Of a stretch of DNA of 20,740 nt, positions 1 to 20,740 are shown in pieces. The notes beneath the pieces are model-generated. The model was not told the DNA's origin. It made no database searches and saw nothing but the letters and a program-made list of their open reading frames with translations. Source of the DNA: Thermoanaerobaculia bacterium (lineage in GTDB: Bacteria > Acidobacteriota > Thermoanaerobaculia > UBA5066). Within the stretch, counting starts at the first letter, position 1; each line of letters begins with the position of its first letter. The stretch is from the NCBI GenBank assembly GCA_038245905.1, contig JBBRRY010000045.1, forward strand, positions 1 to 20,740, read 5' to 3'. Position numbers and translations under genes: made by a program.

Positions 1-1512
1 CAGGCCACGGCGCTGCCGTCGCTCGGAAGCGGCTTGGCGCAGGCTGGAAGCGTCGGCGCCACGCTCGTGACGGACCGCGCATCGGACATCCCGGCGTACT
101 TTGCCGGGCACTGGGTAGAGATTTCGGATTCTTCGAATGTGAAGAAGGGCACGTGGCGGATTGGCACGATCGCGGCAAAGACGGTCACGCTCCTGCCGAA
201 CGGCGCGGAAACGATCAGCGTTGTCGTGGGCGACAAGTGGCAGGGCGTCTATCGCTTCGACTCGGCCCCGGCAGTCACGGGTGGAGCGACGCTCACAAGC
301 GTCGATCCCATCCGCGTCGGCGGCGCGCTCGTGCGGCTCGAGTCCACCGGTCTCTCTGCGCCCGCGGAGTCTCCGCTCGTGATCCGCGCCGTCTCGCTTT
401 GCGCCGGCTTCGCGGCGCCCCTCAAGCCGGGCGGCTCGTTTACCGTCTGCGCCGATACGGGCGCGCGCGAGGTCGATCTCGAGATCTCCGGGGCGTTCGA
501 AGCGCGGGTCGCGGGCTACGGCAACTGCCAGGATCCGATCGCGATCCCCGGCTCGGCGAAGCCCGGGGCGCTGAAGATCGTCGCGACAGCGAAGGGCGCC
601 GAGGGCCGCCTCGCGTCCGCGATCGCGCACGCCAAAGTCGTCGCCGACGAGCTTTCACCGGTACTCGTCTCCGTCGAGCCGGTTGCCGAAACGACGCTCC
701 ATGCGGGCGACCCGCTGCGCGTTGCCGTCGAGACGTGGGACGATGTCGGGATTGCGTCCGTCGCGATTACGCTCGGTGGAACGAGGACGGTCCTGACGGC
801 GCCGCCGTTCGAGATTCGCGCGCTTGCGCCGGCCGTCTCGTCGAACGAGACGTTGCCGGTCCTCGTCGAGGTCTTCGACCCGTCGGGCAACGTCTCGCGC
901 CATGAGACGTCCGTCACGGTCCTTCCGTCGGGCGCGCCGCGCGCGTTCGTGGCTCCGGCGCCGGCCGGCGGAGAGCCGGGCGTCAGGCTCGAAGAGGGGC
1001 GTCTCTCGGTGGAGGGTGGCTGGCCGTGGCGCGACGCGGACGGCGAGACGCGCGGACGCACGCTCGAGCTGCCGGCGATCGGCACACACGAGGTCGCCGC
1101 GGCGGACGGCCCTGTCTTCGCGCTGGACGGTGCAATCGCGCGCGGCGCCGTGTACGGCGGCGCGGTCGTCGTGCGGCGCGGCGGCGAGATCGCTGGACGC
1201 TTCAGAATTCTTTCTGTTTCGGAAGACGGGCTGACCGTTCGGCTCGAGGCTGGAGCGGATGGCATCGTCCGAAGAGGGGATCTCTTAGAAGGTAGATGGG
1301 AATTCGACAGCATCGAGCTCTTCCGAGGGGCACGCCTCTTATCGGCGGACGCGGTTTACGCGCGGTTGGTTCGTGTAGATGCCTCGTCCCTCCTCCTTTC
1401 AAAGAATCTTCAAATTCCTTCTTCTGTTCCCTCCTCTACCGAATGCCCCTCTCACGGCGCACGGCCCGATCCGCCGGGAACGGCGCCCGTGCCTTCCGGA
1501 GGCGCGCCATGA
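1..1512 (+). CDS. 5'-truncated gene; C-terminal 503 aa of a probably large extracellular protein with Ig-like domains and two copies of an approximately 100-aa beta module
   Basis: Frame +1 is open from base 1 (CAG GCC ACG..., QATALPSLGSG) to TGA at 1510-1512, so the TTG at 34 is probably not the real start. It contains an Ig-like domain at about 646-925 (DELSPVLVSVEP...VETWDDVGIASVAI...VEVFDPSGNVSRHETSVTV) and a repeated module ending G-x-Y/W-R/E-F-D-S. Codons are GC3-rich over most of its length. Confidence 0.88.
   Translation, partial: QATALPSLGSGLAQAGSVGATLVTDRASDIPAYFAGHWVEISDSSNVKKGTWRIGTIAAKTVTLLPNGAETISVVVGDKWQGVYRFDSAPAVTGGATLTSVDPIRVGGALVRLESTGLSAPAESPLVIRAVSLCAGFAAPLKPGGSFTVCADTGAREVDLEISGAFEARVAGYGNCQDPIAIPGSAKPGALKIVATAKGAEGRLASAIAHAKVVADELSPVLVSVEPVAETTLHAGDPLRVAVETWDDVGIASVAITLGGTRTVLTAPPFEIRALAPAVSSNETLPVLVEVFDPSGNVSRHETSVTVLPSGAPRAFVAPAPAGGEPGVRLEEGRLSVEGGWPWRDADGETRGRTLELPAIGTHEVAAADGPVFALDGAIARGAVYGGAVVVRRGGEIAGRFRILSVSEDGLTVRLEAGADGIVRRGDLLEGRWEFDSIELFRGARLLSADAVYARLVRVDASSLLLSKNLQIPSSVPSSTECPSHGARPDPPGTAPVPSGGAP
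7..1356 (+). repeat. Diverged internal protein-level duplication in CDS1 (units at about 7-312 and 1060-1356)
   Basis: Unit A: TALPSLG...KGTWRIGTI..KTVTL...VVVGDKWQGVYRFDS...GGATLTSVDPI. Unit B: LELPAIG...AGRFRILSV...LTVRL...VRRGDLLEGRWEFDS...RGARLLSADAV. The motifs are collinear. Confidence 0.75.
1498..1502 (+). promoter_or_regulatory. Shine-Dalgarno GGAGG for CDS2
   Basis: GGAGG lies 6 nt upstream of the ATG at 1509, which overlaps the CDS1 stop (ATGA). Confidence 0.8.
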
Positions 1513-2381
1513 GGTTCTCCTTCGCAGCTCTTTCTTCTCTCTTTTCAGTCCTTTTCCTGGCGGCCCCCGTCCGGGCTGAGGACGCGCCAGTCGTCCTTTT
1601 CCCGGCCGCGTTCTCCGTCGAGCATCGTCTCGTTCAGACCGATCCCGACGGTGACACGTTCCAGGCCGACTCGGTCACGGACACGTACGGCGGCTCGACG
1701 CTCGTCTCGGTGCGCCCGCGCGGAAGCCGCGTCATCGTGGACTTCGGGCGGCGCACGGTCACGGACGTCAGCGTCGAGAAGTCGACGTACTGGACGCTCT
1801 CCTTCTCGCAGATGGGCGACCTCTCGCGGAGGCTGGCGAGGGCCGAAGAGCGGCCGTCGGCCGCGTCGGCCGCGTTGGCCCGGGCGCCGAGCGCGGCGGG
1901 CAAGCAGGATATCCGCATCGAGGAAGTGAGTGATGGCGGGCGCGCCCTCCTCGCCGCCCCGGGCGGTCACGCCCCGCGGGTTGGCGCGCGGCGTTTTCGC
2001 GCCTATGTCGAGAACGGCCCCTCCGCCGACGTTTGGGTGGATGGAACCGTCCGCCTGTCGCCCGCGGCCCTCGACGCGCTCGAATCCTTCGAGAAAGACG
2101 CGCTCGGTTCCGCGGCCGCTCCCGGCGTTTCGCCCGCGCAGCTCGTCGGCGCGGCGCGGCGCGCGGCGGGCGGTGCCGTGCCCGTGCGCGTCAAGCGCCC
2201 GCTCTCTTCGGCGGGAGGCGTCGTCGAGGACGTCGCGACGGCCGTCACGCCGCTTCCGGCCTTCCCGCAGAAGCTTCTCATCGTCGGCGACGGCTTCCGC
2301 CGCGTGCCGAGCCCGCTCGAAGAAATGGTCGCGTTCGCCGAGGACGAAGCTTCGCGCGATTCATCGAGGCTCGTGAAGTGA
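1509..2381 (+). CDS. Exported protein, 290 aa, DUF4412-like (by eye)
   Basis: ATG at 1509 has a strong SD and overlaps the upstream stop. Signal peptide MRFSFAALSSLFSVLFLAAPVRA|EDAP. Motifs VIVDFGRRTVTDVSVEKSTYWTLSF, ADVWVD, GAVPVRV and FPQKLLIVGDGFRRV follow the DUF4412-type pattern. The ORF-track start at 1296 is an in-frame extension inside CDS1. Confidence 0.85.
   Translation: MRFSFAALSSLFSVLFLAAPVRAEDAPVVLFPAAFSVEHRLVQTDPDGDTFQADSVTDTYGGSTLVSVRPRGSRVIVDFGRRTVTDVSVEKSTYWTLSFSQMGDLSRRLARAEERPSAASAALARAPSAAGKQDIRIEEVSDGGRALLAAPGGHAPRVGARRFRAYVENGPSADVWVDGTVRLSPAALDALESFEKDALGSAAAPGVSPAQLVGAARRAAGGAVPVRVKRPLSSAGGVVEDVATAVTPLPAFPQKLLIVGDGFRRVPSPLEEMVAFAEDEASRDSSRLVK
2366..2369 (+). promoter_or_regulatory. 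Shine-Dalgarno GAGG for CDS3
   Basis: GAGG lies 8 nt upstream of the GTG at 2378, which overlaps the CDS2 stop (GTGA). Confidence 0.6.
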
Positions 2382-2443
2382 ACCGTCGCTCCCTTTTTGC
2401 CGCGCTCGCGCTCGCCCTTCTCGGGGCCGGGTTGGCGCGTGCG
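2378..2443 (+). other. N-terminal signal peptide of CDS3 (SPase I type)
   Basis: Basic n-region (MNRR), hydrophobic h-region (LFAALALALLGAGL), A-R-A cleavage motif, and no lipobox Cys. Confidence 0.85.
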
Positions 2444-5400
2444 GCCGACGCGCCGTTCGCGATCGGGCAGCCGCTTGCGCGGCGAGCGATCTTCGGCTGC
2501 GCGGGCGTCACCGTGCAAGACGGCTCGACAGTCCGGTCCGAAGGCGTTTCGTCCTATGCCGCAAAGGAAGGGCAGGCGCACGTCGCGTCGAACGGCGACA
2601 TCCTCGTGACGTCCCGCGCCACGATCCTGGGCGACGCGACCGCCGGGCCCGGACACCTCGCCACGGTCGCGCCCGACGCCGCCGTCTCCGGCCTCACGAC
2701 GCCTGCGGCCGCCGCCGTAGATTGTGCCCCCGTGGATCTCGTGAGGCTCACGGCTTCGCTCGTATCGAACGACAACGCGAAGATTCCAAAAACCGCCCTC
2801 GGCCGAAGCGCGCTCACGGGCGCCACGGGCGACGCGCTGGTGCTGGATGCGCACGACTCGGTCACGCTGCCCGCAGGAACGTTCGTGTTCTCCTCGATCG
2901 ACCTGTCGGAGCGCGCGCACGTCAAGGTCGCGGGCGACGCGCGCGTCCTCGTGACGGGCAACGTGCGCATCACCGGGAACAGCTTCCTGAATCCGGCGGG
3001 CAGAGCCTTCCGCCTGCGGCTCTTCGTCCTGGGGACTCGCGTCACGGTCGAGTCACTTTCGACGGTCGGAGCCTTCGTGATCGCGCCGTCGGCCGAGGTC
3101 TTCGTGGGATCCGAGAGCCGCGTCCTCGGGACGATCTTCGCGAAGACCGTCACCGTGCGCGAGGCGTCCGCGGTCATCCGCCTCGTGGACGACACGCCGC
3201 CCGTGCTCACGCTGATCGAGCCGACGGGGACCGGCCTGCCCTCGCTCGCGGCGGTACGCGTGCGCGGATTCGCGCGCGACCCGGAGACGGCCGTGATCTC
3301 GGCCACGGTGAACGGACGCGTCGTCTCTCTCGAGAGCGACGGGTCCTTCGACACGACGATGGACGTCACGGCCTCGAGTGAGGTTCGCCTCGACGCCGAG
3401 AACGCGATGGGCCTCGTCGCGACGGTGCGCGTGAACCTCTGCAGCGGACCGCCCACGGTCGCCGTGCTCTCGCCGGCCGACGGCTCACTCGTGGGCGCCC
3501 GGATCGGATCGGTCTCGGGGACCTTCCGCGGCGCGACCTCCATCGCGGTAAACGGACGGCCCGCCGTGCTGGGAGACGGCACGTTCCGGCTCGACGGTTT
3601 CGACTTCGGGCCCGACGGAGTCGTCGTCGTCGCCGTCGTCGCTTCGAGCTCCTGCGCGCAGTCGTCCGTCGCCAGCGTCTTTACGCTTGATACCGCGCCG
3701 CCCGTCGTCACGATCGACACCCCGGCCCCGGGCTCCGTTCTCGCGTCGTCGCCGGTCACCGTGAGCGGGACCTTCGTCGAGCCGAATCTCGCGGAGATCA
3801 CGGTGAACGGAGTGGCGGCCGTGATTTCGGGGAATCGGTTCACGGCGGTCGTCCCGATTCCGCTCGGCCCCTCGGCGCTCGTCGCCGAGGGGCGCGACCG
3901 GCTGGGCCGCGTGGGGGTCTCGGCGCGCGTCAACGTTACGCTCGACACTCAGTCCGCTTCGGTGGTCATCACGAGTCCGATTTCGGGCGCGCTCACCGCC
4001 GATGGGACGGCGACCGTAACCGGGACGGCGAGTGTTCCGGGCCTTGCCAGCGTCCGTGTCGCCGGCCGCGCGGCGGCCGTGACGGGCACCAGCTTCACGG
4101 TCTCCGGCGTTCCTCTGGCCGAGGGTGACAACCGGCTCGTGGCCGAGGCGATCGACTCCGCGAGCCGGTCCTTCTTCTCGCAACCGGTCTTCGTGACGCT
4201 GGACTCGCTGCCGCCCGACGTCGCGCTCGACGCGTCCTCGTTCCCGCTCCTGACGAGACTCTCCACCGTCAACGTGTCTGGGACGGCAGCGGATCCGCAT
4301 CTCGGCGCGGTCACGGTGAACGGCGTCGCGGCGGTGGTTTCCGCCGGGCGCTTCACGGCCGCGAACGTGCCGCTTGCCGAGGGCGCCAATTCCGTCCGCG
4401 CGCACGCCATCGACACACTCGGTCACGCGGCGGACTCGGCCTCGGCGACAGTCGACCGCGACACGCAGGCGCCGGCTGTGACGATCACGTCGCCCACGCT
4501 GAACGCACAGCTCACGGCATCGAGCGTGACGGTCTCCGGCACGGCCGTCGACCCACATCTCGCGGGCGTCACGGTGAACGGCGTCGCCGCATCGGTATCG
4601 AACGGCCGATTCACCGCGCTGCTGACGCTTTCCGAAGGCGACACGACGCTCGTCGCGAACGCTTCGGACACTCTGGGCAACGCGGCCTTGTCGGCCGGAG
4701 TTCCCGTCACCGTCGACACGATCGCCCCGATTGTCTCGATCGACTCGCCGGCCGATCCGCTCACCGGCTCGGCGTCCGTCACGGTGACGGGCACGGTCGT
4801 CGAGCCGCACCTCCTCTCCCTCACGGTGTCGGGCGTGCCGGCGTTCGTCTCGGGCGGGAGGTGGGTCGCGACGAATGTCCCGCTCGTCGAGGGCACGCAG
4901 CGCCTCACGGCCGTGGCCGTCGACACGTTCGGTCATCGCGCCGAGTCGTCGCAGGTGGAATACCGGCTCGACTCGACACCGCCCGTTCTCACGATGGACG
5001 CTCCGGCCGCGGGTTCCGCGGCGTGCCGGGCTCCGGGACCGCCCGTGACCGTGTCCGGCCGCGTGTACGGACGCGCGGGCGTCCGGCCCGTCGTCACGCT
5101 CGGCGTGCAGCCGGCCGGCAGCGCGGCGCAGTCCTTCACGGCGGCGCTCGACGCGGCGGGGACGACGTGGACGGTCCCGGCCGTCGACCTCGGCTCCGCC
5201 GACGGCGCGGCCACGCTGACCGCGACGACGTCCGACTCGCTCGGGCACGACGTGCGCGTCCTGCGCACGTTCCGCATCAAGGCCTCCTCGCCATCTCTCA
5301 GCCTCCTCCTCGACGGCAACGCGATGCCGGGCAGCGCCGTCGGCGCGGTGGCGGCTCCCGGCGAGACGCCGGTGCTGTTCGGGCGCGCTCTCTTACCCCG

Positions 5401-14400: not shown

Positions 14401-17400
14401 GGCGATCATCGACGTCTGGGACATCGGGCGGGCGAACGGCGGACCCAGCAGCGACGGGAGCTATCCGCCCTCCGTGGATTCGGTAGATCCCCGACTGCTC
14501 TTCACGCTCAATGCGCCATGGGACACGAACCACCTCGGGCTCGACGAGGACACGGGGCTCCTCTATACCTGGGGCTCGCGCGCGGACGGGAAGACCGGCG
14601 GCTTCGTCCTCGCGACACGCGATCCGCAGTTTGTGTTCAGCGGCCTCTTCCGTCCCGTTGGCGAGACGCGGGACCCGATTGCCGGCGGCCCGCCCCTTCC
14701 CAGCGCCCAGCGAACGATCGACAAACTCACACCGCTCATACCGCTTGGCGTCGCCATGCGCGTCCTGCCGAAGGATGAAGCGGACCCGGAGAAGGCGAAG
14801 ACCGACGAGCGGGCGGCGACCGCCGCTTTCAAGCTCCGCGTCGCGCTGCCTGGCGTGCTGAAGGAGAAGCTCTACGCGAGGGTCCAGTCGCTCCGCGCGC
14901 TGCCGGACGAGCGCCTGCTCGCGCGCGAGAACGTCGGGCCTTTCGTCGCCGCACCGGGCGGCGACGGCTGGCCGGAGCGGGACGTGTCGATCACGCTCCG
15001 CCGGCTCGTGCCCGCGGGAGCACCGACGGCGGAGAAGCTCAAGCCCCCCTACAACCTGTACGAGTCGGACGAGGTCATCCTCCTAATCGCCGACCCGCGC
15101 GCGCGGGCCGACTACTGGAAGGGGAAGCAGACGCTCGCCCCGCCGGCGACGGCCGACGAAAACACGCAATGCCGGCGCTGTGGCCGACCGTCCTACCTGC
15201 CCGTCAAGGCGGACGACCCGACGCTCAAGGTGAAGGAGCTGCTCGCGGGCGGCCCGTGGATCCGGGCGTTCCTCGCCGAGCCGCCGGGCGGTGACGCCGA
15301 CACGCGCGCGGCGCTCGATTACTTTGACTCGACCGAGGACAACTACCCGAGACCTGCCGGTGCCGTCCAGTCGCTCGGCTTCGCCGACGAGGTCCCATCG
15401 CCCGTGCAGATCGCGCTCGCGGAGCCCGCGCTCAACGCGGCGTCATGGAGCGCCGAGGCCGGAGCGAGCGTTTCGCTCGTGTCGGGCGAGGCATTGCTCG
15501 CGGCGACGGACCACGCCGTGGAGGGCCGCGGCGTCGGGTTCGTGTTCGACCGCACGTACCGCTCGGGCGTCCTCGGCTATGGTTCGCTTGGAGCCGCGGG
15601 CTGGGGCTCGTCGATGTTCGCGCGCCTGCGCCTCCTTCCGGCCACGAAGGAGGTCGAGCTCCACGACGGCAGCGGCCACGTCTTCAGATTCTCGCCGCCG
15701 GTGGAAGGCTCGTGCGCACTGCCGGCGCTGCCGGGGCCGACCCGCGACGTACCGACGCACGAACTGGACGGCGGCTGGTGCGTCCCCAGAGGCCTTTATC
15801 TGAAGCTGGACGTTGTCGGCGAGGGCGATTCGTACCGCCTCCTGGGGCGCAACCACGACACGATGCTTTTCGACTCGTCGGGCCGCCTCGTGCAGCTCTC
15901 CGACCGCATTCGCCATGGCGCGTCCGACCCGAAGAAGCAGGGCAACACGCTGCAGCTGTTCTACGACGGCGCGGGCTTCCTCATGGGCGCAGAGGACGAG
16001 ATGGGGCGGTCCTACCGATTCACGTACGACAAGGAGCCGCTCCTCGCGGGCGGCGACCCGAACCCGAAGTACGCTCTTCTGAAGACCGTCGAGGACTTCG
16101 CGACGCCCCCGCGCGTCGTGACGTTCCGGTTCGACGACGAGCGGAGACTCACGGAAGTCCAGCTGCCCGCCGTCACGAACCCAGACGCCGAGTTCAAGCA
16201 CGACGCGCCCATCGTCCGATACAAGTACGAGTACGCGAAGACGCTGGCGTCCACCGCACCCGCCAACGGACCGGACTTCTCGAAGCTGAAGCTCACGAGC
16301 TTCCTCCTGCCCGACGCAGACGCCCCACGAATCGCCTTCGACTACGCTCCAGCGACGGGGCGTGTCACCACGCTCACGCTGCCGCCCAGCGCCGTGGGCG
16401 GCACCGGCACGGCGTGGACCCTCCGTTACGTGGATCCGTCGTCCGACGCGGGTCCGACCAAGACCGTGTCCGTCGTGGCGCCCTGGAGTTTCAGCCTCGA
16501 CTACGCCCTTGATGCCGGCCGCATCACGACCCTGACCGAGAAGGTCGAGACGGTGGGCCCGGCCGACGGGGACATTCCTGACGTGGCCGTTGGGCCGCCC
16601 GTACAGACGCTCACGACGAACTACTCTTATCTCGAGGACGGACGTCTCGATTTCGTCGAGTGGCCCGACAAACACCTCACGCGGCAGAAGTACCCGGACG
16701 GCGGGGTGCGGCTCGAGCTCGCCAACGTCGTAGAGGCGACGGCCGAGCCGGGCGGGGCGCCGACGGGCCCGGCAAAGCACGGTGTTCCCGCCACGAAGGT
16801 CACGTCCTTCGTTGACAACATTGCGCAGACGATTCTCGATCCGCTCTTGCGGTCGACGACCTCCGCCGTCGCGACTGCGAACGGCTTGGCAAATCCCGCT
16901 TTCGTGGGCAATGACGACCCCGGCAAGCCCCAACCCATCCAGCCCACGGTCGGCGGGACCGCGTCATACGACCCCTACGGCCGCCTTGCGACGTTCCAGG
17001 GCAACGGCACGAACAGCACGCAAGCAGGGACGAAGTTCGGTAAGGACGCGCAGGGGCGCGAAAACGCGGGCTTCGCGACGGAGATCGCGCGGGGCGAGGT
17101 TAAGGAAACGCTCGAGTACGACACGGACGGCACGGGCCCACGTGGCAACGTGACGCACCGGACGACGAGTTTCAAGACGGAGAGCAAGTTCGATTACGAC
17201 GAGTGGGACCGCACGATCCGCGAAGAGACGGGTCTCAGCAAAGGCGATCTCGAGCAGGTGACGGACGCCATCGTCACGCGCGGCTACGACGCTTCCGGCC
17301 ACCTCGCGGTCGAGCGGCGGAAGCAGGCGGGGGTCGGAACGGGAACAGTCGAGACGCGCTACACCTACAACGACCGCGAGCAGCTCCTCAGCGTCACGGT

Positions 17401-20400
17401 CGACAACCTCGCGTCGGAGAGCCCCGGAGCCGCCGCCGGCCTGAAGGGAACGACGGCGTACTCCTACGACTCGTCGGGCCGCGTCTCGGAGGTCAGGTCA
17501 CCTCAGGGCGTGATCACGCACTACGAGTACGACTCGGCCGGGCGCGTCAAGAGCGAGCGCGTGGGCCCCACGGGGGGAATTCGTAGTCGCGGCTACGACG
17601 CGATGGGGCGGCTCGTCTGGAGGACCGACGGCGACGACGGCTTCTGGCGCGGGCGGTACGACGCCTGGGGCCGGCTCTTCCAGGAGGACCTGCCCACGGG
17701 CGCCTCGCTCGAACGTGAGTTCGACGCCGCGGGCGGCGTCCTCCGCGAGACGCTCTTCACCGGCCTTCCGGGCCTCGTCGCCTCGACGAAGATCACCGAG
17801 ACGAAGAAGCACGTCACGAGCTTCGGCGCGGTCGACCTCGTCGACGAGCTGCTCACGACCGGACCCGAGACGCACCGGATCACGAAGAAGACGTACGACG
17901 GCTCCGGCCGGCTCGTGACGGTGACGAGCGGACCGACCGATGCGATCCAGCGGACGGATCTCACGGCGGCATACGACGCCGCGGGCCGCTCGACGAGCCA
18001 GACCGACGCCGGCCAGAACGTGACGGAGTTCAGGTACACGAATGCAGCGCCCTGGCCCACGCGGATGACATTCACGGAGGCGGTCCCCGGAAAGGCTCCG
18101 GTGCAAACCACGTATTCGGAGTACGGCCGCGACGCGTTTGGGCGCGTAGTGGGCGAGAAGCGGTATGGGGGCAGCAGCGTCCTTGTCTCGGAGACCATGA
18201 CGAAGTTCGACCAGAGCGGCAACGTCCGGTCGGTCAAGACTGTCATCGGCAACGAGACCACTTTCACGTACGACGGCGCCGGCCGCCTCCTGACCGAGGC
18301 GAGGCCGACGAACGGCACGACCCAGTACGGCTACGACCTCGACGGGCGCGTGAGGCACCGCGTGTCGGGCAGCATCAGCGCGCGCCCGAACAAGACGGAC
18401 TACGGTTACGACACGTCGGGGCGCCTCGACAAGGTCGACCGTCCCGACTCGACGAGCGAGTCCTTCAAGTACAACGGCGACGACACCGTGCAGACCTGGA
18501 CCACGCGCTCAGGCATCGTCGTCACGAACCGGTACGACGCCGCCAACCGGCTCCTCTCGCGCACGCCGGCAAGGTCCTCGAACTCGAAGGCGCCCGCCGT
18601 CGACGGCGGCGACAGGTACGCCTACGACGAAGGCTCGCGCCTGAAGTCCGTCGACAGATGGGACGAGCCCGCGGGGGCAGCTGCGTTCCTGTCGAACCTT
18701 TCCGCGCGCGCCGCGTTCGCACAGTACGACGCGGCGGGCCGTCCCGGCGAGGAAAGGATCGGGGCGCGCTCACCGTTGACGCGCGTCTACGACACGTGGT
18801 CTCGCGAGGCTGACGTTCGCGTTCCCGACGGCGTTGGCCGCCAGGCCGCGAGCGCGTTCACGGGCTACCACCGCGAGTTCGACTCGCTCGACCGTCTCTT
18901 GAGCCTCTCGGCAGTCGGCGATACCGCGCTCGGCGCGCGGTGGGATTGGGGCGGCACGTCGCGTCTCTACGGCGTCACGACATCGAGTTCCCTCGGCACG
19001 GCGCACCGCTACAGCTTCCTCGGTTCCTACGGTCCGCAGCCCGGCGGCTCCGTCACGACTCCGTGGCAGCTCGGCGTGGTGTCGGTCGGCTCCTCTGCGG
19101 CGGGCGATGCGGCCGTTGATGCTCCCGCCTCGGTTTGGGGCCAGATGGCCTACGGCTACAAGACGGGCGACGCAACCAAGCGTGGGCGCGCCGTCATGGG
19201 AGCCGCGCCAGGCCGGGTGGGCGTCTTCGCGAACCAGGGCTGGCGCTTCACGTCCGACGACGCGCTGCGCCTGACTTCGGCCGAGGCGGGCAGCGGCAGC
19301 ATTGACGGCTCGGATCCGGCCGTCATAAGCGAGAAGTTCACGGCCGTCTACGACATCGGCGACGAGGTGAAGGTCCTCTCGCGCGAGAAGTCGGCTGTCC
19401 GGAGCGCCACGTTCGTCCCGGGCGTCGAAGGCCGCATCGAATCTCGCAACGGCATCGCGTTCGATCACGACCCCGAGGGCCGCCGTCTCGCGGACGATCG
19501 CTACACCTACGCCTGGGGCTGGCGGGGTGAGCTCCTGTCGGTCAGCGTCAAGGATTGCTGGCCCGCCGAAAACGGCGAGTCCCATGCTCCCGACTGCCCC
19601 TCGGGCTTCACGCGCCCGCGTTTTGCCGGCCACAAGGTCCTCTACGAATACGATGCCCTGGGCAGCCTCCTCGCCCGTGAGGAACGCGGCGAGCCGGCGT
19701 CGCCGGGCGACGAGGCCACGCGGCCCTTCTACGAAAGGCGCGAATACCTTTGGGACGGTACTCGCCTGCTGGCCGAGGCGGGCCGCGCCGCCGACGGCGG
19801 GCTCCTGTGGAGGAAGTCCTACGTCCCCGGAGCCAGCGGCCTCGACGACGCTGTCCAGCAGCGTGTCGAGACCTACGACGTCACGGGAGCCGAAGCCGCG
19901 CCTCCGAAGCTCTATGCCTTCCTGCGCGACGATCAGAACACCGTCCTCGGTCTCGTGGAAGAGCGCGACGGAGCCGACCCTAAGAACCCGCCCATTCCCG
20001 TCCGGTACCACTACAGCCCGTACGGGGAAGCCCACGCCGAGACGGCGACCGAGCTCGTGAGGGTGACGTTCGAGGATTCACTCCACAGCGTCACCAGTCC
20101 GGACGGCACGACGGCCAGCCAGACGACGGCCGCTGATGCGCGAGATGGGGGCCTCAGGATCTTCCTCACCCTCCCGGTCGACCCGTCGGTCCTGGCCACG
20201 GCCCTGACGGTCGAGAAGAGGAACGCGGACGGCACGTGGGGAGCGCTGACTGCCGCCGAGCTCGCTCTCGGACAACATCCCGGCCAGCCGGACGAGATCG
20301 AAGTCATCGCGGTAAACGGCTGGAAGCAGGGCGCGACTTACCGCGTGAGGATCAACGGCCTCAAGGACACGCTCGGCAGAACCGCGACGTCGTCGTCGCT

Positions 20401-20740
20401 CGTTACGTGGGACGTCCCGGCCAGCGACGCTGTCCTCCTCGACCGGAACTTTCCGCTGGTCTACGAATGCGCGGTGGCGTCAGCAGACAGCGTCAGCGGT
20501 GCGTTCCCCGGCGGCCAGAACCTCCTCTTCCAGGGCCTCTGGACCGACCCCGTCACCGGCATCGCCTACGCCAGAAACCGCTGGTACGACGCGAGGAATG
20601 TGGGATGGCTCTCCCAAGACCCTCTCGGCGACCGCGACTCCGTCAACCTCTACGGATTCGTCGGAGCAAGGCCGCACGAGAAGACCGATCCGTTGGGACT
20701 GGGAATCCTCGATGACACATTCGGCTGGGTGAAGGAGAAG
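2378..20740 (+). CDS. Giant (>6121 aa, 3'-truncated) signal-peptide-bearing, multi-Ig-domain Rhs/YD-repeat protein; putative polymorphic toxin/adhesin
   Basis: Frame +2 from GTG 2378 has no stop to the window end in my manual translation. Consistently, the ORF track lists no terminated frame +2 ORF after 2378. It begins MNRRSLFAALALALLGAGLARA and ends WYDARNVGWLSQDPLGDRDSVNLYGFVGARPHEKTDPLGL|GILDDTFGWVKEK. It has many YDxxGR repeats. Confidence 0.96.
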   Translation, partial: MNRRSLFAALALALLGAGLARAADAPFAIGQPLARRAIFGCAGVTVQDGSTVRSEGVSSYAAKEGQAHVASNGDILVTSRATILGDATAGPGHLATVAPDAAVSGLTTPAAAAVDCAPVDLVRLTASLVSNDNAKIPKTALGRSALTGATGDALVLDAHDSVTLPAGTFVFSSIDLSERAHVKVAGDARVLVTGNVRITGNSFLNPAGRAFRLRLFVLGTRVTVESLSTVGAFVIAPSAEVFVGSESRVLGTIFAKTVTVREASAVIRLVDDTPPVLTLIEPTGTGLPSLAAVRVRGFARDPETAVISATVNGRVVSLESDGSFDTTMDVTASSEVRLDAENAMGLVATVRVNLCSGPPTVAVLSPADGSLVGARIGSVSGTFRGATSIAVNGRPAVLGDGTFRLDGFDFGPDGVVVVAVVASSSCAQSSVASVFTLDTAPPVVTIDTPAPGSVLASSPVTVSGTFVEPNLAEITVNGVAAVISGNRFTAVVPIPLGPSALVAEGRDRLGRVGVSARVNVTLDTQSASVVITSPISGALTADGTATVTGTASVPGLASVRVAGRAAAVTGTSFTVSGVPLAEGDNRLVAEAIDSASRSFFSQPVFVTLDSLPPDVALDASSFPLLTRLSTVNVSGTAADPHLGAVTVNGVAAVVSAGRFTAANVPLAEGANSVRAHAIDTLGHAADSASATVDRDTQAPAVTITSPTLNAQLTASSVTVSGTAVDPHLAGVTVNGVAASVSNGRFTALLTLSEGDTTLVANASDTLGNAALSAGVPVTVDTIAPIVSIDSPADPLTGSASVTVTGTVVEPHLLSLTVSGVPAFVSGGRWVATNVPLVEGTQRLTAVAVDTFGHRAESSQVEYRLDSTPPVLTMDAPAAGSAACRAPGPPVTVSGRVYGRAGVRPVVTLGVQPAGSAAQSFTAALDAAGTTWTVPAVDLGSADGAATLTATTSDSLGHDVRVLRTFRIKASSPSLSLLLDGNAMPGSAVGAVAAPGETPVLFGRALLPRASVSDGPGSAPPAPVVTLDGAPWGGSPISAEGTHLLAATVTDCAGHAAFVHALFTIDVTPPRLLTFVPADQATLGVAVASVSGTSDPDLASATVNGVAAAVSGGAFARTPFPWKEGANALTIQLVDRAGNAATYTRSFTVRTIGPSVEILESGAPLGSGAKFFRAVTPTVRSNDPAATVTATLNGAVFVSGTPVSVSGDYALAATAADALGHTATANASFKVDLSPGPEVDIASPADRSVLPGPTVAVTGTASASVTSVTVNGRIATLAGATWGLPDLVLPPDVPSEIVAIAFDAAGRTASATRQVTVRASGPQIAILEPADGAKTNRKKIDVAGAVVGGPSATANGSVVVAGQTLLLDALGTFRAKDVALQTGANTITASATDPLGRTGTASVTVTTDSAAPGIAIAADGQPLAEGASFARPFTVRVTITDDTLPLPVPAIRLNGQDKGATAAVTDLPIAQAGGYVLSVVVRDAAGNESRADRSFVLASGGCAVSALDPGDGAVVAAPKVTLKGRSGDAASVTVTSAGQTFAAQLADGTFAAGDVPLAAMGDNPLSIACTDRAGAVSTTNLNVRRLQDGAGPVVRIVQPAGGARQTGGTVTVSGTVSDPAAAVTVNGVKATVASGGFSTGPLPLVEGPNVLAARAVDAAGRSGEDRVVVFRDSAAPKVAITSPPDGAHVGKPGSGPVVVNVSGFVDLTSEPNLASVVVATSAGSVTATVDADTGAFYAGGVPLATTSPGVSQSVTATATDTLGQSVTATVGVIYDPAAPALVLGQPVDGTRFSETSPPSFAASGDAWAKDGAIVSINGGGLDGLTWDAPAADGRRHASFTPQVTMPATEGPFGVIARVEEPSGAYANDKRLLFKDVTAPTVVDMQPADGAKQVDANEIPLVLFSENVRPSSLSAADGLTLTRVATGDKAVGTFTIAGSAVAFAPGAAMVRGEAYKFRAGAGVTDLVGHPLAAAKEVQFTVAAVGTSAPPVLDALPPVVCATQLVVAGAAVPNASVRVRDAALSVSGNADAAGRFAVTIPLSGNGWHAVHAAVIDSGGTAGPEAAALFRVDCSAPAVVGATFDRGSGKIAVVFAEAMRASTVTVGGPGSAITVSKADDATNAPQAATLTLSTDGATATLDLGNSPSIWWLNASVRLSVGPPATDAAGNVMTAPFSTVFFAGGGGDLSGGFLSGAALDEESGRPLAGADARLYASGAALPGSVPAVEVTPATASTVTDGRGRFSLTGDIAAGRYALVLSRTGYTRAVRRLALEPAVGAVPFGSRLTPLAAQAPSLLAAAAGGSFAGPAGSSLTADFASNALVAATSLGVRLTPLSGQGLPEPLPLGWTPLAAAELRLVPNGAGDDALPEGAGTPFTPGGVTLTLALPAGILTADLYAARYDVVAGAWLALPLPVFVAGSSSTPDRARVTPTGPGTVALIAPDADPATRPAVMPVSLDAPLVGVALPSTVPTLSATIALDPPIVSPIGRATARVLAKASDGVTPFPSGLAVQGYLDEKLILSGGAGELYEAPFSADLVLYHPPLSAGDLGGAAPGAVGALSFRISPSPRAAQVLLDTGYENVRLFPFTDQLERGQVLGPAGGSVSTADGVELFVPESGLAQKTVVSARKLTAAELAALPPVSGYATAAAVRVSFSGASLARAASLRLNAPTGLPVDAADDPRYVLAVLVDQPDDGRGAFANAVSRVTLLPAAGAVPARLVAAPEVSGSPLPFPGVAGEGVFLFLHANAPIGFVTGRVAAPNGAGIAGSRVTAAGLGTANLSVPGGPYAVPAPAGSPTLTALHPVLGLSGTGQVPSLAKGQVGMLDLVLSPTPPQIRSLQPANGATDQPVGSTVAIVFSAALDPASVTAATLSVSLADSAGASTGLVFSGAIALSPDRTTVVFTPTRPLPPGRRIAARFVGGVRDAAGTAYGGPLPVDWSFTTSTQFVTGGSVHPEKIRLLVPVNGVARVIGDPGALPAALSGTTPWSAFADVDGPVACPSVTTVPADSAGGFTLNAGCPPSSTVTFASRVYIHILDPTGTEAATFRLGLFTTPDGKGFVAVPGDETVFTTAEGVEVTTPAAAFDTPTLVKVTKQPLDSLAVALNPGFEMGAVLNVDFDGTAKETLRLRIPVVTASPVGGLVFAGTPFETPWGRKLKILDVGRLVDDGKGGKLISTAEADQPDDPALVAGGASSVRTGGRKAQALPKKLLQTIAAEFTARATAGFIFGATLELAAITGHVEPAIVGTTFFILYNALADAFIYQAIAHNWDGRYVLPSTGTAFTVVKRELATGWILGQKDYGPVAPSPGRFVNLGELEPGSSDPPRLVDAAPFPVIRFKAPAVSTGQETNLRLRLEMEANTTDQALVTLRSVSGLAFADGTVVSLYNLTQGTSVKATVSGGSFTAGPVAGKAGDDLLALVLASDVETDGLTDLTFEFSRPLQSVADPRTLVALTDVETGAPVAMQAFLEASSTRLRVQLYGALGRGRDYKVELSSIFSDNGVAYHASDPTVFTFRTRRAQQDPIGSTLGPGLSLGDTDSARDVLKFGNLLLVGSGNGRLLAVDASDPAKPVLFARLTPSAGDQVRAFATDGHNRLFYNARFGSTWAIKAVRVEDVWNASLANCPSSAGDPGWLAALPCFLPVDGGVKAAFALGSSLGLTGSEYLSLMGGLGTGMPAGLEALAANDVVGPYPAEEFFQRIAGSGTYPVGPPSSPDPGVDVTLTVSTAGHVFDRGVAPCGEPSYDRKQRVTVDNLTTGQSWSIDVANPSNSGTTASVRIHARRRDVIQVRYNKTAIGYVAIVGSGVTVVDLNRFYDSPLPSGSANQINRGECQRRLGTYEGADATFGPCSGASPTSLSNTPALAVVPGHAESASIDVFSVLTHFGAGNLVSDANAPGALQAVEMRCLRDAVPSVPPAAAYRAAAIALGTTWMDVGAVAGSSGKFTKPNPAPPPTELNGDLLFYSLGPAGVAVFDVTFRPTMNLIGRFWRKDHSVYRLATDRAGKRLFAGGQDKDGKAIIDVWDIGRANGGPSSDGSYPPSVDSVDPRLLFTLNAPWDTNHLGLDEDTGLLYTWGSRADGKTGGFVLATRDPQFVFSGLFRPVGETRDPIAGGPPLPSAQRTIDKLTPLIPLGVAMRVLPKDEADPEKAKTDERAATAAFKLRVALPGVLKEKLYARVQSLRALPDERLLARENVGPFVAAPGGDGWPERDVSITLRRLVPAGAPTAEKLKPPYNLYESDEVILLIADPRARADYWKGKQTLAPPATADENTQCRRCGRPSYLPVKADDPTLKVKELLAGGPWIRAFLAEPPGGDADTRAALDYFDSTEDNYPRPAGAVQSLGFADEVPSPVQIALAEPALNAASWSAEAGASVSLVSGEALLAATDHAVEGRGVGFVFDRTYRSGVLGYGSLGAAGWGSSMFARLRLLPATKEVELHDGSGHVFRFSPPVEGSCALPALPGPTRDVPTHELDGGWCVPRGLYLKLDVVGEGDSYRLLGRNHDTMLFDSSGRLVQLSDRIRHGASDPKKQGNTLQLFYDGAGFLMGAEDEMGRSYRFTYDKEPLLAGGDPNPKYALLKTVEDFATPPRVVTFRFDDERRLTEVQLPAVTNPDAEFKHDAPIVRYKYEYAKTLASTAPANGPDFSKLKLTSFLLPDADAPRIAFDYAPATGRVTTLTLPPSAVGGTGTAWTLRYVDPSSDAGPTKTVSVVAPWSFSLDYALDAGRITTLTEKVETVGPADGDIPDVAVGPPVQTLTTNYSYLEDGRLDFVEWPDKHLTRQKYPDGGVRLELANVVEATAEPGGAPTGPAKHGVPATKVTSFVDNIAQTILDPLLRSTTSAVATANGLANPAFVGNDDPGKPQPIQPTVGGTASYDPYGRLATFQGNGTNSTQAGTKFGKDAQGRENAGFATEIARGEVKETLEYDTDGTGPRGNVTHRTTSFKTESKFDYDEWDRTIREETGLSKGDLEQVTDAIVTRGYDASGHLAVERRKQAGVGTGTVETRYTYNDREQLLSVTVDNLASESPGAAAGLKGTTAYSYDSSGRVSEVRSPQGVITHYEYDSAGRVKSERVGPTGGIRSRGYDAMGRLVWRTDGDDGFWRGRYDAWGRLFQEDLPTGASLEREFDAAGGVLRETLFTGLPGLVASTKITETKKHVTSFGAVDLVDELLTTGPETHRITKKTYDGSGRLVTVTSGPTDAIQRTDLTAAYDAAGRSTSQTDAGQNVTEFRYTNAAPWPTRMTFTEAVPGKAPVQTTYSEYGRDAFGRVVGEKRYGGSSVLVSETMTKFDQSGNVRSVKTVIGNETTFTYDGAGRLLTEARPTNGTTQYGYDLDGRVRHRVSGSISARPNKTDYGYDTSGRLDKVDRPDSTSESFKYNGDDTVQTWTTRSGIVVTNRYDAANRLLSRTPARSSNSKAPAVDGGDRYAYDEGSRLKSVDRWDEPAGAAAFLSNLSARAAFAQYDAAGRPGEERIGARSPLTRVYDTWSREADVRVPDGVGRQAASAFTGYHREFDSLDRLLSLSAVGDTALGARWDWGGTSRLYGVTTSSSLGTAHRYSFLGSYGPQPGGSVTTPWQLGVVSVGSSAAGDAAVDAPASVWGQMAYGYKTGDATKRGRAVMGAAPGRVGVFANQGWRFTSDDALRLTSAEAGSGSIDGSDPAVISEKFTAVYDIGDEVKVLSREKSAVRSATFVPGVEGRIESRNGIAFDHDPEGRRLADDRYTYAWGWRGELLSVSVKDCWPAENGESHAPDCPSGFTRPRFAGHKVLYEYDALGSLLAREERGEPASPGDEATRPFYERREYLWDGTRLLAEAGRAADGGLLWRKSYVPGASGLDDAVQQRVETYDVTGAEAAPPKLYAFLRDDQNTVLGLVEERDGADPKNPPIPVRYHYSPYGEAHAETATELVRVTFEDSLHSVTSPDGTTASQTTAADARDGGLRIFLTLPVDPSVLATALTVEKRNADGTWGALTAAELALGQHPGQPDEIEVIAVNGWKQGATYRVRINGLKDTLGRTATSSSLVTWDVPASDAVLLDRNFPLVYECAVASADSVSGAFPGGQNLLFQGLWTDPVTGIAYARNRWYDARNVGWLSQDPLGDRDSVNLYGFVGARPHEKTDPLGLGILDDTFGWVKEK
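2477..3187 (+). other. Beta-solenoid domain, ice-binding (DUF3494)/DUF7305-like
   Basis: Motifs AIFGCAGVTV, VASNGDILV..ATILGDATAGPG, VTLPAGTFVFSSIDL, VLVTGNVRITG, LRLFVLG and FVIAPSAEVFVG..VLGTIFAKTVTV occur in the order typical of this fold. Confidence 0.65.
3191..7996 (+). repeat. Tandem array of about 18 bacterial Ig-like domains (about 85-105 aa each)
   Basis: Units open with D-T/S-x-x-P-x-V-x-I-x-x-P and contain VSG...VTVNG...F...VPLxEGxNxLxAxAxDxxG. Unit starts at 3689, 3944, 4202, 4460, 4715 and 4970 give a 255/258-nt period. Confidence 0.9.
7997..12910 (+). other. Mixed domain block: about four SbsA-type Ig (Big_5), two to three carboxypeptidase-regulatory-like and three ZU5-like domains
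   Basis: Big_5-like at about 7997 (DVTAPTVVDMQPADGAKQVD..VLFSENV), 8582, 10856 (PPQIRSLQPANGATDQPVGSTVAIVFSAALDPASV..VVFTPTRPL..VRDAAG..WSFTT) and 12326. CarboxypepD_reg-like at about 8936 (LSGAALDEESGRPLAGA..TDGRGRFSL..GRYALVLSRTGY), 10615 and possibly 12065. ZU5-like at about 9260, 10145 (LGPAGGSVSTADGVELFVPESGL) and 11530 (GVEVTTPAAAF). Confidence 0.7.
12977..14620 (+). other. LVIVD/YVTN-like beta-propeller with large loop insertions
   Basis: Blade motifs: ARDVLKFGNLLLVGSGNGRLLAVDASDPAKPVLFARL, VRAFATDGHNRLFY, GYVAIVGSGVTVVDL, LLFYSLGPAGVAVFDVT, VYRLATDRAGKRLFAGG..IIDVWDI and HLGLDEDTGLLYTWG. Confidence 0.7.
15461..15691 (+). other. DUF6531-like Rhs shell entry domain
   Basis: GASVSLVSGEALLAATDHAVEGRGVGFVFDRTYRSGVLGYGSLGAAGWGSSMFARL...VELHDGSGHVFRF matches the VxxxxGE..TD..G..FxRTYRS..GxxGxGW pattern. 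Confidence 0.8.
15850..20029 (+). repeat. YD/RHS repeat array (cocoon shell)
   Basis: Many units, e.g. FDSSGRLVQLSD, YDPYGRL, YDEWDRTIRE, YDSSGRVSEV, YEYDSAGRV, YDAMGRLV, YDAWGRL, YDGAGRLL, YDLDGRV, YDTSGRL, YDAANRLL and YEYDALG. Confidence 0.93.
20003..20701 (+). other. RHS repeat-associated core (aspartyl autoprotease), split by an inserted domain
   Basis: RYHYSPYGE, then a 163-aa insert, then NLLFQGLWTDPVTGIAYARNRWYD...WLSQDPLG...NLYGFVGARPHEKTDPLGL. The PxxxxDPxGL terminus is at 20672-20701. Confidence 0.93.
20702..20740 (+). other. Start of the hypervariable C-terminal cargo (putative toxin); identity not determinable
   Basis: GILDDTFGWVKEK follows DPLGL directly; the window then ends. 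Confidence 0.8.

Follow-up and report, generated by a model that had tools for sequence, protein, structure and literature searches.

What do three overlapping genes, two of them parts of genes for proteins of about 6,000 residues, do together in a bacterium with two membranes? The question is raised by a stretch of 20,740 nucleotides from a Thermoanaerobaculia bacterium of sediment (contig JBBRRY010000045.1 of assembly GCA_038245905.1; the whole stretch is called the window hereafter), which holds three coding sequences (CDS): the end of a giant gene (CDS1, whose protein we call giant1), a small gene (CDS2) and the beginning of a second giant gene coding for an Rhs protein (CDS3). Comparison across related genomes showed that the two giants are the core of this arrangement, and that CDS2 is a third component, present in two clades and almost exclusively with the pair. 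Our best explanation, to which we give an even chance, is that the window is the middle of a single operon, giant1-CDS2-Rhs, coding for an Rhs toxin system dependent on the general secretory (Sec) pathway and independent of type VI secretion systems (T6SS), in which CDS2 would serve as a periplasmic escort.

Organisation and conservation of the three genes

The window coincides with contig C45 of its own genome, G000 (assembly of 3.80 Mb in 113 contigs, 68% G+C, 96.4% complete, 0.7% contamination), and both giants are therefore cut by the contig ends, which are assembly breaks within giant genes. All three genes lie on the + strand. CDS1 (1..1512), open at its 5' end, comprises the last 503 codons and the stop codon of giant1; CDS2 (1509..2381) has 290 codons and codes for a protein with a Sec-type signal peptide and a predicted LolA/RseB-like fold; CDS3 (2378..20740), open at its 3' end, comprises the first 6,121 codons of a putative Rhs polymorphic toxin of about 6,400 residues. 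The CDS1/CDS2 junction is an ATGA at 1509-1512 (CDS2 start ATG 1509-1511, CDS1 stop TGA 1510-1512) and the CDS2/CDS3 junction a GTGA at 2378-2381 (CDS3 start GTG 2378-2380, CDS2 stop TGA 2379-2381), and this GTG lies in the reading frame of the 6,121 open codons. Shine-Dalgarno-like motifs read from the sequence precede both starts, GGAGG (1498..1502, +) 6 nt upstream of the CDS2 ATG and GAGG (2366..2369, +) 8 nt upstream of the CDS3 GTG. The 4-nt overlaps are not a matter of chance, because the NTGA is kept at the junction of CDS2 with the downstream giant in 14/14 loci (the window and 13 others) and at the giant1/CDS2 junction in 11/12. Neither a sigma-70-like promoter nor a + strand terminator-like site was found within window positions 1-4000. 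At the sequence level, the three genes were thereby shown to form a conserved, apparently translationally coupled unit; a preliminary description of this stretch, made from its letters, had already pointed to both overlaps and their ribosome-binding motifs, which we read directly and found again in relatives.

The gene order was then compared between loci. In species-representative genomes, a same-strand giant open reading frame (ORF) directly follows CDS2 in 13/13 loci, and a giant precedes it in all 11 loci with upstream flank. A metagenome sample of 53 loci, found with a narrow CDS2 alignment and biased to the window's own CDS2 clade, gave a CDS3 homologue in 31/31 loci with at least 1 kb downstream and a giant1 homologue in 25/31 loci with at least 1 kb upstream; five of the six loci with no giant1 match have an ORF running off the edge, and one (L110) does not. 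Complete loci carry giant1 (6,147 residues in G001 and 5,238 in G002), CDS2, an Rhs protein (about 6,420 and 6,434 residues, respectively) and then a small ORF. Weaker matches to the CDS2 profile (E 1e-5 to 1e-20) in other families of the class proved to be true relatives with a rearranged cassette. In this distant clade, the CDS2-like gene is followed directly by a giant1-like gene with no giant upstream (8/8 loci), the giant1-like genes share the conserved N-terminal region of giant1, a CDS3-like second giant comes next in the four loci that were followed further (4/4), and this second giant ends with the Rhs core motif in 3/3 cases read to the end. The two gene orders correspond to two clades of the CDS2 tree (100/100 support), so that a single change suffices, and inside the class CDS2 relatives were never seen apart from giants. 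The linkage thus survives rearrangement, which is a stronger argument for joint function than a fixed order would be.

Co-occurrence was counted in the same 301 genomes of the class for each of three probes, the CDS2 profile, a profile of the giant1 N-terminal region and a CDS3-specific probe (residues 2201-2800); because of kinship among these genomes and the fragmented state of many, the counts are descriptive. Four unpublished genomes are counted as well: G180 and G184 match every probe, G140 those of giant1 and CDS3, and G109 that of CDS3. CDS2 was detected in 60 genomes (15 strong matches, E<1e-50, and 45 weak), the giant1 N-terminal region in 108 and the CDS3 probe in 86. Giant1 accompanies CDS2 in 59 of the 60 CDS2-positive genomes and the CDS3 probe does so in 50, and all three occur together in 50 genomes; both giants are found together in 83/301, giant1 being present in 83 of the 86 genomes positive for the CDS3 probe. 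Distribution is patchy inside the genus to which the window belongs: the cassette was detected in 3/15 other genomes, and several assemblies of high contiguity yielded none. Across 301 sampled genomes of the phylum, matches to the CDS2 profile from outside the class came from four genomes only and were weak and partial (E 3e-7 to 7.5e-6); none of these four matches (0/4) lies near giant genes, and we did not count them as members of the family. More than one copy of the cassette, or of its giants, was observed in G286 (contigs C25 and C45) and G136 (four matches to the giant1 N-terminal region). The preliminary description had seen a three-gene unit and had suggested looking at the flanks of CDS2 homologues: giants adjoin every homologue with enough flank, in two gene orders, and the unit is indeed conserved, coupled and linked in both orders, but its core is the giant pair rather than CDS2.

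The three proteins

All three proteins were shown to carry Sec-type signal peptides, judged by eye from the n-h-c region pattern and not with a predictor. The N-terminus of CDS2 reads MRFSFAALSSLFSVLFLAAPVRA, followed after the presumed cleavage point by EDAP (signal peptide ~1509-1577), and that of CDS3 reads VNRRSLFAALALALLGAGLARA, followed by ADAP (~2378-2443); both end with AxA, and the same pattern recurs in the homologues; the preliminary description had noted signal peptides for these two genes.

CDS3 is, by its sequence features, a signal-peptide Rhs polymorphic toxin. Beyond the signal peptide we found, all on the + strand, a DUF7305-like stretch (2894..3169, residues 173-264), which passes the Pfam cut-off in the G001 orthologue but not here, and an array of about 1,700 residues of immunoglobulin (Ig)-like domains (3533..8563, approximate limits; Glucodextran_B x10, Big_13, Big_3_3 and Big_6). 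The probe region (8978..10777, residues 2201-2800), which lies within the best-conserved part of the protein, includes a weak CarboxypepD_reg-like match at 9041-9178 and is followed by a Big_5 Ig-like domain (10856..11191, residues 2827-2938). DUF6531, which precedes many Rhs cores, lies at 15464..15691 (residues 4363-4438, E 4.3e-9). The detected RHS/YD repeats of the cocoon span 17351..18835, the actual shell being larger; they were matched by RHS_repeat PF05593 (E 4.4e-20, 72 bits against a cut-off of 22), TIGR01643 (E 5.9e-22) and YD_repeat_2x. The Rhs-associated core TIGR03696 (20513..20701, residues 6046-6108, 48.1 bits against a cut-off of 32.5) closes with DPLGL (20687-20701, read from the sequence), which we take to be the usual Rhs self-cleavage site, and the last 39 nt (20702..20740) are the first 13 codons of a variable C-terminal toxin, at which the contig ends.

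Orthologues of CDS3 align end to end over about 6,100 residues, with 67%, 59% and 44-45% identity. The middle of the protein (residues 1000-3200, window 5378-11977) is conserved more than the cocoon in distant orthologues (about 50-55% against 33-44%); such conservation of an Ig-rich middle is unusual for a 'stalk' and therefore suggests that this part has a specific function. A search of the PDB with the Rhs half returned only T6SS-type Rhs cores (8qja, 8h8a and 7q97), weakly, with a best E value of 7e-14 over about 100-130 residues, and a PDB sequence search with the N-terminal half gave no match. The C-termini of the relatives differ, with a YwqJ-like deaminase (4.8e-6), a Tle1-like lipase (1.2e-34) and three ends matching no family; in the distant clade the toxin ends are a YwqJ-like deaminase (G136), a Tle1-like phospholipase (G027) and an unknown domain (G080). 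Judged from these family matches, the Rhs C-termini were shown to be polymorphic. The ORF that follows the Rhs gene in G001 and G002 is small (157 or 184 residues) and has a lower G+C content at third codon positions (GC3).

An orphan Rhs C-terminal cassette was observed at the end of contig C19 of the window's genome (about 1.1 kb; L050:18446-19999, minus strand). It contains a 34-residue stretch 88% identical to the core end of CDS3 and continues with a C-terminal domain of about 250 residues matching no Pfam family and then a 191-residue ORF, possibly for immunity; a transposase of the rve type lies nearby, and the cassette may belong downstream of the window's locus. In G001 (L018), the region downstream of the Rhs gene carries genes for a Ser/Thr kinase, a Vsr endonuclease, a C5 DNA methylase, a helix-turn-helix protein, a primase-like protein and a tyrosine integrase, together with colicin-immunity-like and SUKH-like small ORFs, and this island resembles a mobile or orphan-immunity region. 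The corresponding region of G002 (L024) holds toxin-antitoxin genes (MazF/PemK, HicA and ParE-like), an IS110-family transposase and two large ORFs (853 and 746 residues) matching no family.

The sequence of CDS2 matched no family of Pfam or NCBIfam, and a PDB sequence search with its profile returned nothing meaningful. The preliminary description had called it DUF4412-like, a label that had to be abandoned: none of 62 family members (0/62) matched DUF4412 (PF14371) or the LolA families at E<=5, and hhalign against genuine DUF4412 proteins of the same genomes gave a probability of 2%, the sole lead in that direction coming from language-model features (score 0.92 with a DUF4412 cluster). A LolA-like fold holds instead. 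The AlphaFold model of CDS2 (predicted local distance difference test, pLDDT, 88.7; predicted template modelling score, pTM, 0.84) retrieved LolA chains with Foldseek at E 1e-7 to 1e-4, with modest template modelling (TM) scores of 0.3-0.5, and VIA-align gave Z scores of 8.3-10.5 over 137-152 residues (10.5 for 2yzy, 9.3 for LolA 6f3z and 8.4 for MucB). As modelled, CDS2 has the fold of LolA, LolB and RseB/MucB, an unclosed antiparallel beta-barrel with a helical plug or lid. Its relatives number 68 in a 90%-clustered collection, the window's own protein included, and 138 clusters among 1.84 billion 50%-representatives, in which complete members have about 280-400 residues. Those with a named source come from Acidobacteriota or Thermoanaerobaculia, in agreement with the taxonomic guess made earlier from the letters. 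Co-folding of CDS2 with residues 28-390 of CDS3 (its N-terminal domain) and with the C-terminal 190 residues of CDS1 gave a score of 0.00, which we counted neither way.

Complete orthologues of giant1 measure 5.2-6.1 kaa (thousand amino acids). In the window's genome, the 5' part of the gene lies on contig C49 (7168-19038), which codes for the first ~3,950 residues, and contig C111 (1.2 kb) is a collapsed internal giant1 repeat of about 375 residues (~1.1 kb); C49 and C111 share the same terminal stretch of at least 55 nt. Tandem modules of about 375 residues (window 1-350, the end of C49 and C111) broke the assembly. The protein begins with a signal peptide and an N-terminal region of about 640 residues, followed by CarboxypepD_reg, SpaA/SdrD_B-like, Big_5 and Big_7 domains. 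Ig modules had been claimed for this gene within the window, where the only Pfam match, to Big_7, is sub-threshold (E 0.0037); they are present on C49, with Big_7 at 2.3e-13 and Big_5, beside CarboxypepD_reg at 4.3e-42. Distant relatives of giant1 terminate in F5/8-type-C lectin-like domains. The domain make-up of giant1, as read from these family matches, is that of a giant adhesin. Its N-terminal region (L049:7336-9267, on C49) matches no Pfam family, has 83 invariant columns among 11 sequences and was found in 123 giant proteins of 2.2-6.9 kaa. The AlphaFold model of this region (644 residues) reached a pLDDT of 61 and a pTM of 0.32; a likeness to the macroglobulin (MG) array of alpha-2-macroglobulin and complement gave Foldseek TM scores of 0.1-0.2, from which no conclusion was drawn, and a search of the ESM Atlas with the region returned no usable match. 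Upstream of giant1, a 300-residue ORF of high GC3 and no Pfam family (L049:6161-7060, on C49) occupies a gap of about 1 kb between a divergent TPR/transglutaminase gene and giant1; the same gap measures about 170 nt in G002.

Secretion route and rival explanations

By which route could such proteins leave the cell? No T6SS, Tc or two-partner secretion (TPS) gene was found in or next to the cassette, as the preliminary description had noticed for the known Rhs delivery routes; the genes around it are housekeeping or mobile-element genes that vary between genomes. The Pfam lists of the giants contain no PAAR, VgrG or Eag-type family and no TPS family, there is no conserved TpsB, and neither TcA (VRP1, TcA_TcB_BD) nor TcB (SpvB, TcdB_toxin_mid) families were matched at E<=0.001-0.01 in the giants of G000, G001, G002 and G136. 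A 533-residue POTRA outer-membrane protein and a DUF6600 protein are coded directly upstream of giant1 in G001 only (L015:18806-L016:1708); we rejected them as the transporter, no POTRA protein being found near the trio in G000 or G002-G005. Secretins, at two per genome, are present in 5/5 carriers tested, and an exit by an unlinked type II secretion system (T2SS) or a system of the type IV pilus (T4P) kind is therefore possible.

The mechanism we propose would run as follows. Giant1, CDS2 and the Rhs protein would all cross the inner membrane by Sec; in the periplasm CDS2 would act as a dedicated escort or holdase for one giant on its way out, and passage across the outer membrane would rely on a general machine not linked to the cassette, such as either of the two secretin systems. 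Outside the cell, giant1 would bind the target and the Rhs fibre, with its long Ig stalk and its cocoon, would deliver the encapsulated C-terminal toxin, while a downstream immunity protein, whose gene is expected after the toxin and off the contig, would protect the producer. In its widest form, which we put forward tentatively and at less than even confidence, the pair of giant1 and giant Rhs, joined in two clades by the LolA-fold CDS2, would be an undescribed Sec-dependent and T6SS-independent system of contact-dependent toxin delivery, in which two surface fibres of about 6,000 residues cooperate, one binding the target and one bearing the Rhs cocoon, and a periplasmic LolA-like escort hands a giant to the outer-membrane exit.

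Several observations weigh against this proposal. CDS2 is not generally needed for the giants, because 33 of the 83 genomes with both giants gave no CDS2 match and the single-contig genome G202 has the two giants directly adjacent with no CDS2 homologue (a 325-residue ORF upstream of the G202 pair was considered as a hidden CDS2 analogue and rejected, with an hhalign probability of 0.2%; it reads as an integrase-core transposase). In G085 a giant1-like gene stands alone, with a CDS3-like match 77 kb away, and giant1-like proteins also occur outside Acidobacteriota, with labels including Verrucomicrobiae, Binatia, Deltaproteobacteria and a tubeworm-associated gammaproteobacterium. The distant clade does not conserve the N-terminal domain of CDS3, and therefore no conserved docking site is obvious on the Rhs protein. 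A LolA-like fold, moreover, is silent on the ligand, so that CDS2, as modelled, could bind lipid rather than protein, and the proteins might stay periplasmic or leave by lysis or in vesicles. Finally, by comparison with the 6,419-residue G001 orthologue, about 300 toxin residues and the expected immunity gene lie off C45.

Some of these points bear on the role of CDS2 inside the same functional unit, where it may be no chaperone at all and act instead as a LolB-like lipid- or lipoprotein-binding tether fixing the fibre to the outer membrane, as an RseB/MucB-like envelope sensor reporting or regulating the load of giants, or as a co-secreted helper of membrane insertion at the target. The model matches LolA, LolB and RseB/MucB about equally (Z 7.4-10.5), CDS2 is dispensable in the pair genomes counted above, as an accessory would be, and conservation is strong in its C-terminal helix and at many positions of its surface. 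Its signal peptide, however, read from the sequence, carries no lipobox cysteine, no sigma or anti-sigma genes are adjacent to the cassette, and a stoichiometric partner would explain the coupling to a 6,000-residue client better than a sensor would; we regard a non-chaperone CDS2 as unlikely. That the three genes are mere co-inherited neighbours with no cooperation, namely an independent adhesin, a general envelope LolA-like protein and an independent Sec-exported Rhs toxin, would accord with the giant1-like genes found without the others, in G085 and in other phyla, and with the giant pair found without CDS2; the overlaps at both junctions across loci, a linkage that outlasts the change of gene order, the counts of giant1 in CDS2-positive and Rhs-like-positive genomes and the constant proximity of CDS2 relatives to giants inside the class make it improbable.

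Two known machineries were also weighed as models. An ABC complex of the Tc type, in which giant1 would be the A-type translocator and the Rhs giant a fused BC cocoon, is suggested by two adjacent genes whose products are both very large, one being an Rhs cocoon that encloses a C-terminal toxin. The giants of four genomes, however, show only Ig-like, CarboxypepD_reg, DUF6531 and RHS families and none of TcA or TcB, both have Sec signal peptides, and the solved structures retrieved with the Rhs half were the weak T6SS-type matches given above; this makes a Tc-like complex very improbable. Most studied Gram-negative Rhs proteins are T6SS cargo effectors, and TssC is present in 4/6 carriers (G001 and G003-G005). 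It was not found in G002 or in G000 (0 matches at 96.4% completeness), however, and the T6SS locus of G001 lies more than 1.7 Mb from the trio; given Pfam lists free of PAAR, VgrG and Eag-type families, an N-terminal Sec signal and a 4,000-residue array of extracellular-type domains, the Rhs giant has hardly any chance of being such an effector. A Sec-dependent system with CDS2 as periplasmic escort is the explanation that we carry into the comparison below.

Comparison with known systems

To our knowledge, the deployment of Rhs proteins in Gram-negative bacteria is understood almost only for the T6SS and Tc systems, and the Rhs proteins with Sec signals of diderms have been catalogued but not explained. 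With this cassette, bacteria that have two membranes may possess a means, not described before, of using Rhs toxins that requires no T6SS. It offers three handles on this question, a conserved partner giant, a LolA-fold accessory of no described family and natural variants without the accessory, and with CDS2 the LolA fold would gain a new cellular role. The cassette is frequent in an abundant uncultured class of soil and sediment, and since the pair occurs in 83/301 sampled genomes, it may shape competition or predation there.

The combination of a signal peptide with RHS repeats is itself a recognised export class ('T2SS' or general secretory pathway), which Zhang et al. (2012, PMC3482391) list for Acidobacteria and for other groups. 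As here, that class combines signal peptide, RHS repeats and C-terminal toxin, and it includes the deaminase and DUF2235 toxin types seen here in relatives; unlike here, neither a LolA-like partner ('LolA' has 0 occurrences) nor a paired giant adhesin-like gene is named in the accessible portion of that article (PMC3482391). West-Roberts et al. (bioRxiv 10.1101/2023.11.21.568195), who surveyed giant genes, deal with Omnitrophota and, in the accessible part of their text, make no mention of Acidobacteria or LolA. Our literature search, with most subscription journals and paper supplements outside its scope, found no description of the trio or of a LolA-like Rhs partner. The trio may indeed be undescribed, as had been suggested, but toxins with Sec signals and Rhs repeats are already a known class, and the new part would be the accessory pairing, conserved yet unannotated, that surrounds a toxin of known kind.

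With the T6SS Rhs effectors and their Eag (DUF1795) chaperones, the cassette shares a DUF6531-type N-side and a DPxGL C-side of the core, a polymorphic toxin and a small dedicated accessory gene directly upstream. It differs by a Sec signal in place of a PAAR, VgrG or prePAAR region, by the two of six carriers in which TssC was not found, and by an accessory of LolA-like fold predicted to be periplasmic rather than cytosolic. CDS2 in turn resembles LolA, LolB and RseB/MucB in its unclosed beta-barrel with a helical lid and in its predicted periplasmic location, whereas it has no sequence match to their members in Pfam, NCBIfam or the PDB, and its context is a giant secreted pair and not the Lol, sigma-E or alginate pathways. 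In CdiA/CdiB, the two-partner system of contact-dependent inhibition, a very long extracellular filament bears a polymorphic C-terminal toxin with immunity downstream; a similar filament and toxin are proposed here from the genes alone, but with no TPS domain, no conserved TpsB and an adjacent POTRA protein confined to G001. Tc toxins have an Rhs cocoon working with a second very large protein, and an Rhs cocoon likewise stands beside a very large partner in the cassette, whose Pfam lists differ in containing no Tc A or B family.

The closest parallel is probably WapA of Bacillus subtilis, a Sec-exported, wall-associated YD/Rhs polymorphic toxin with immunity. Both have an N-terminal Sec signal, an Rhs/YD shell and no dedicated injection machine, and here too a variable C-terminal toxin followed by a small immunity gene is expected. 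The host here is a diderm, however, in which the outer membrane must be crossed, the Rhs giant is about three times larger, with an Ig-rich stalk of about 4,000 residues, and it comes with two conserved partners that WapA does not have, namely giant1 and, in two clades, CDS2. By analogy, the system would work most like WapA, but in a diderm and with two additional partners.

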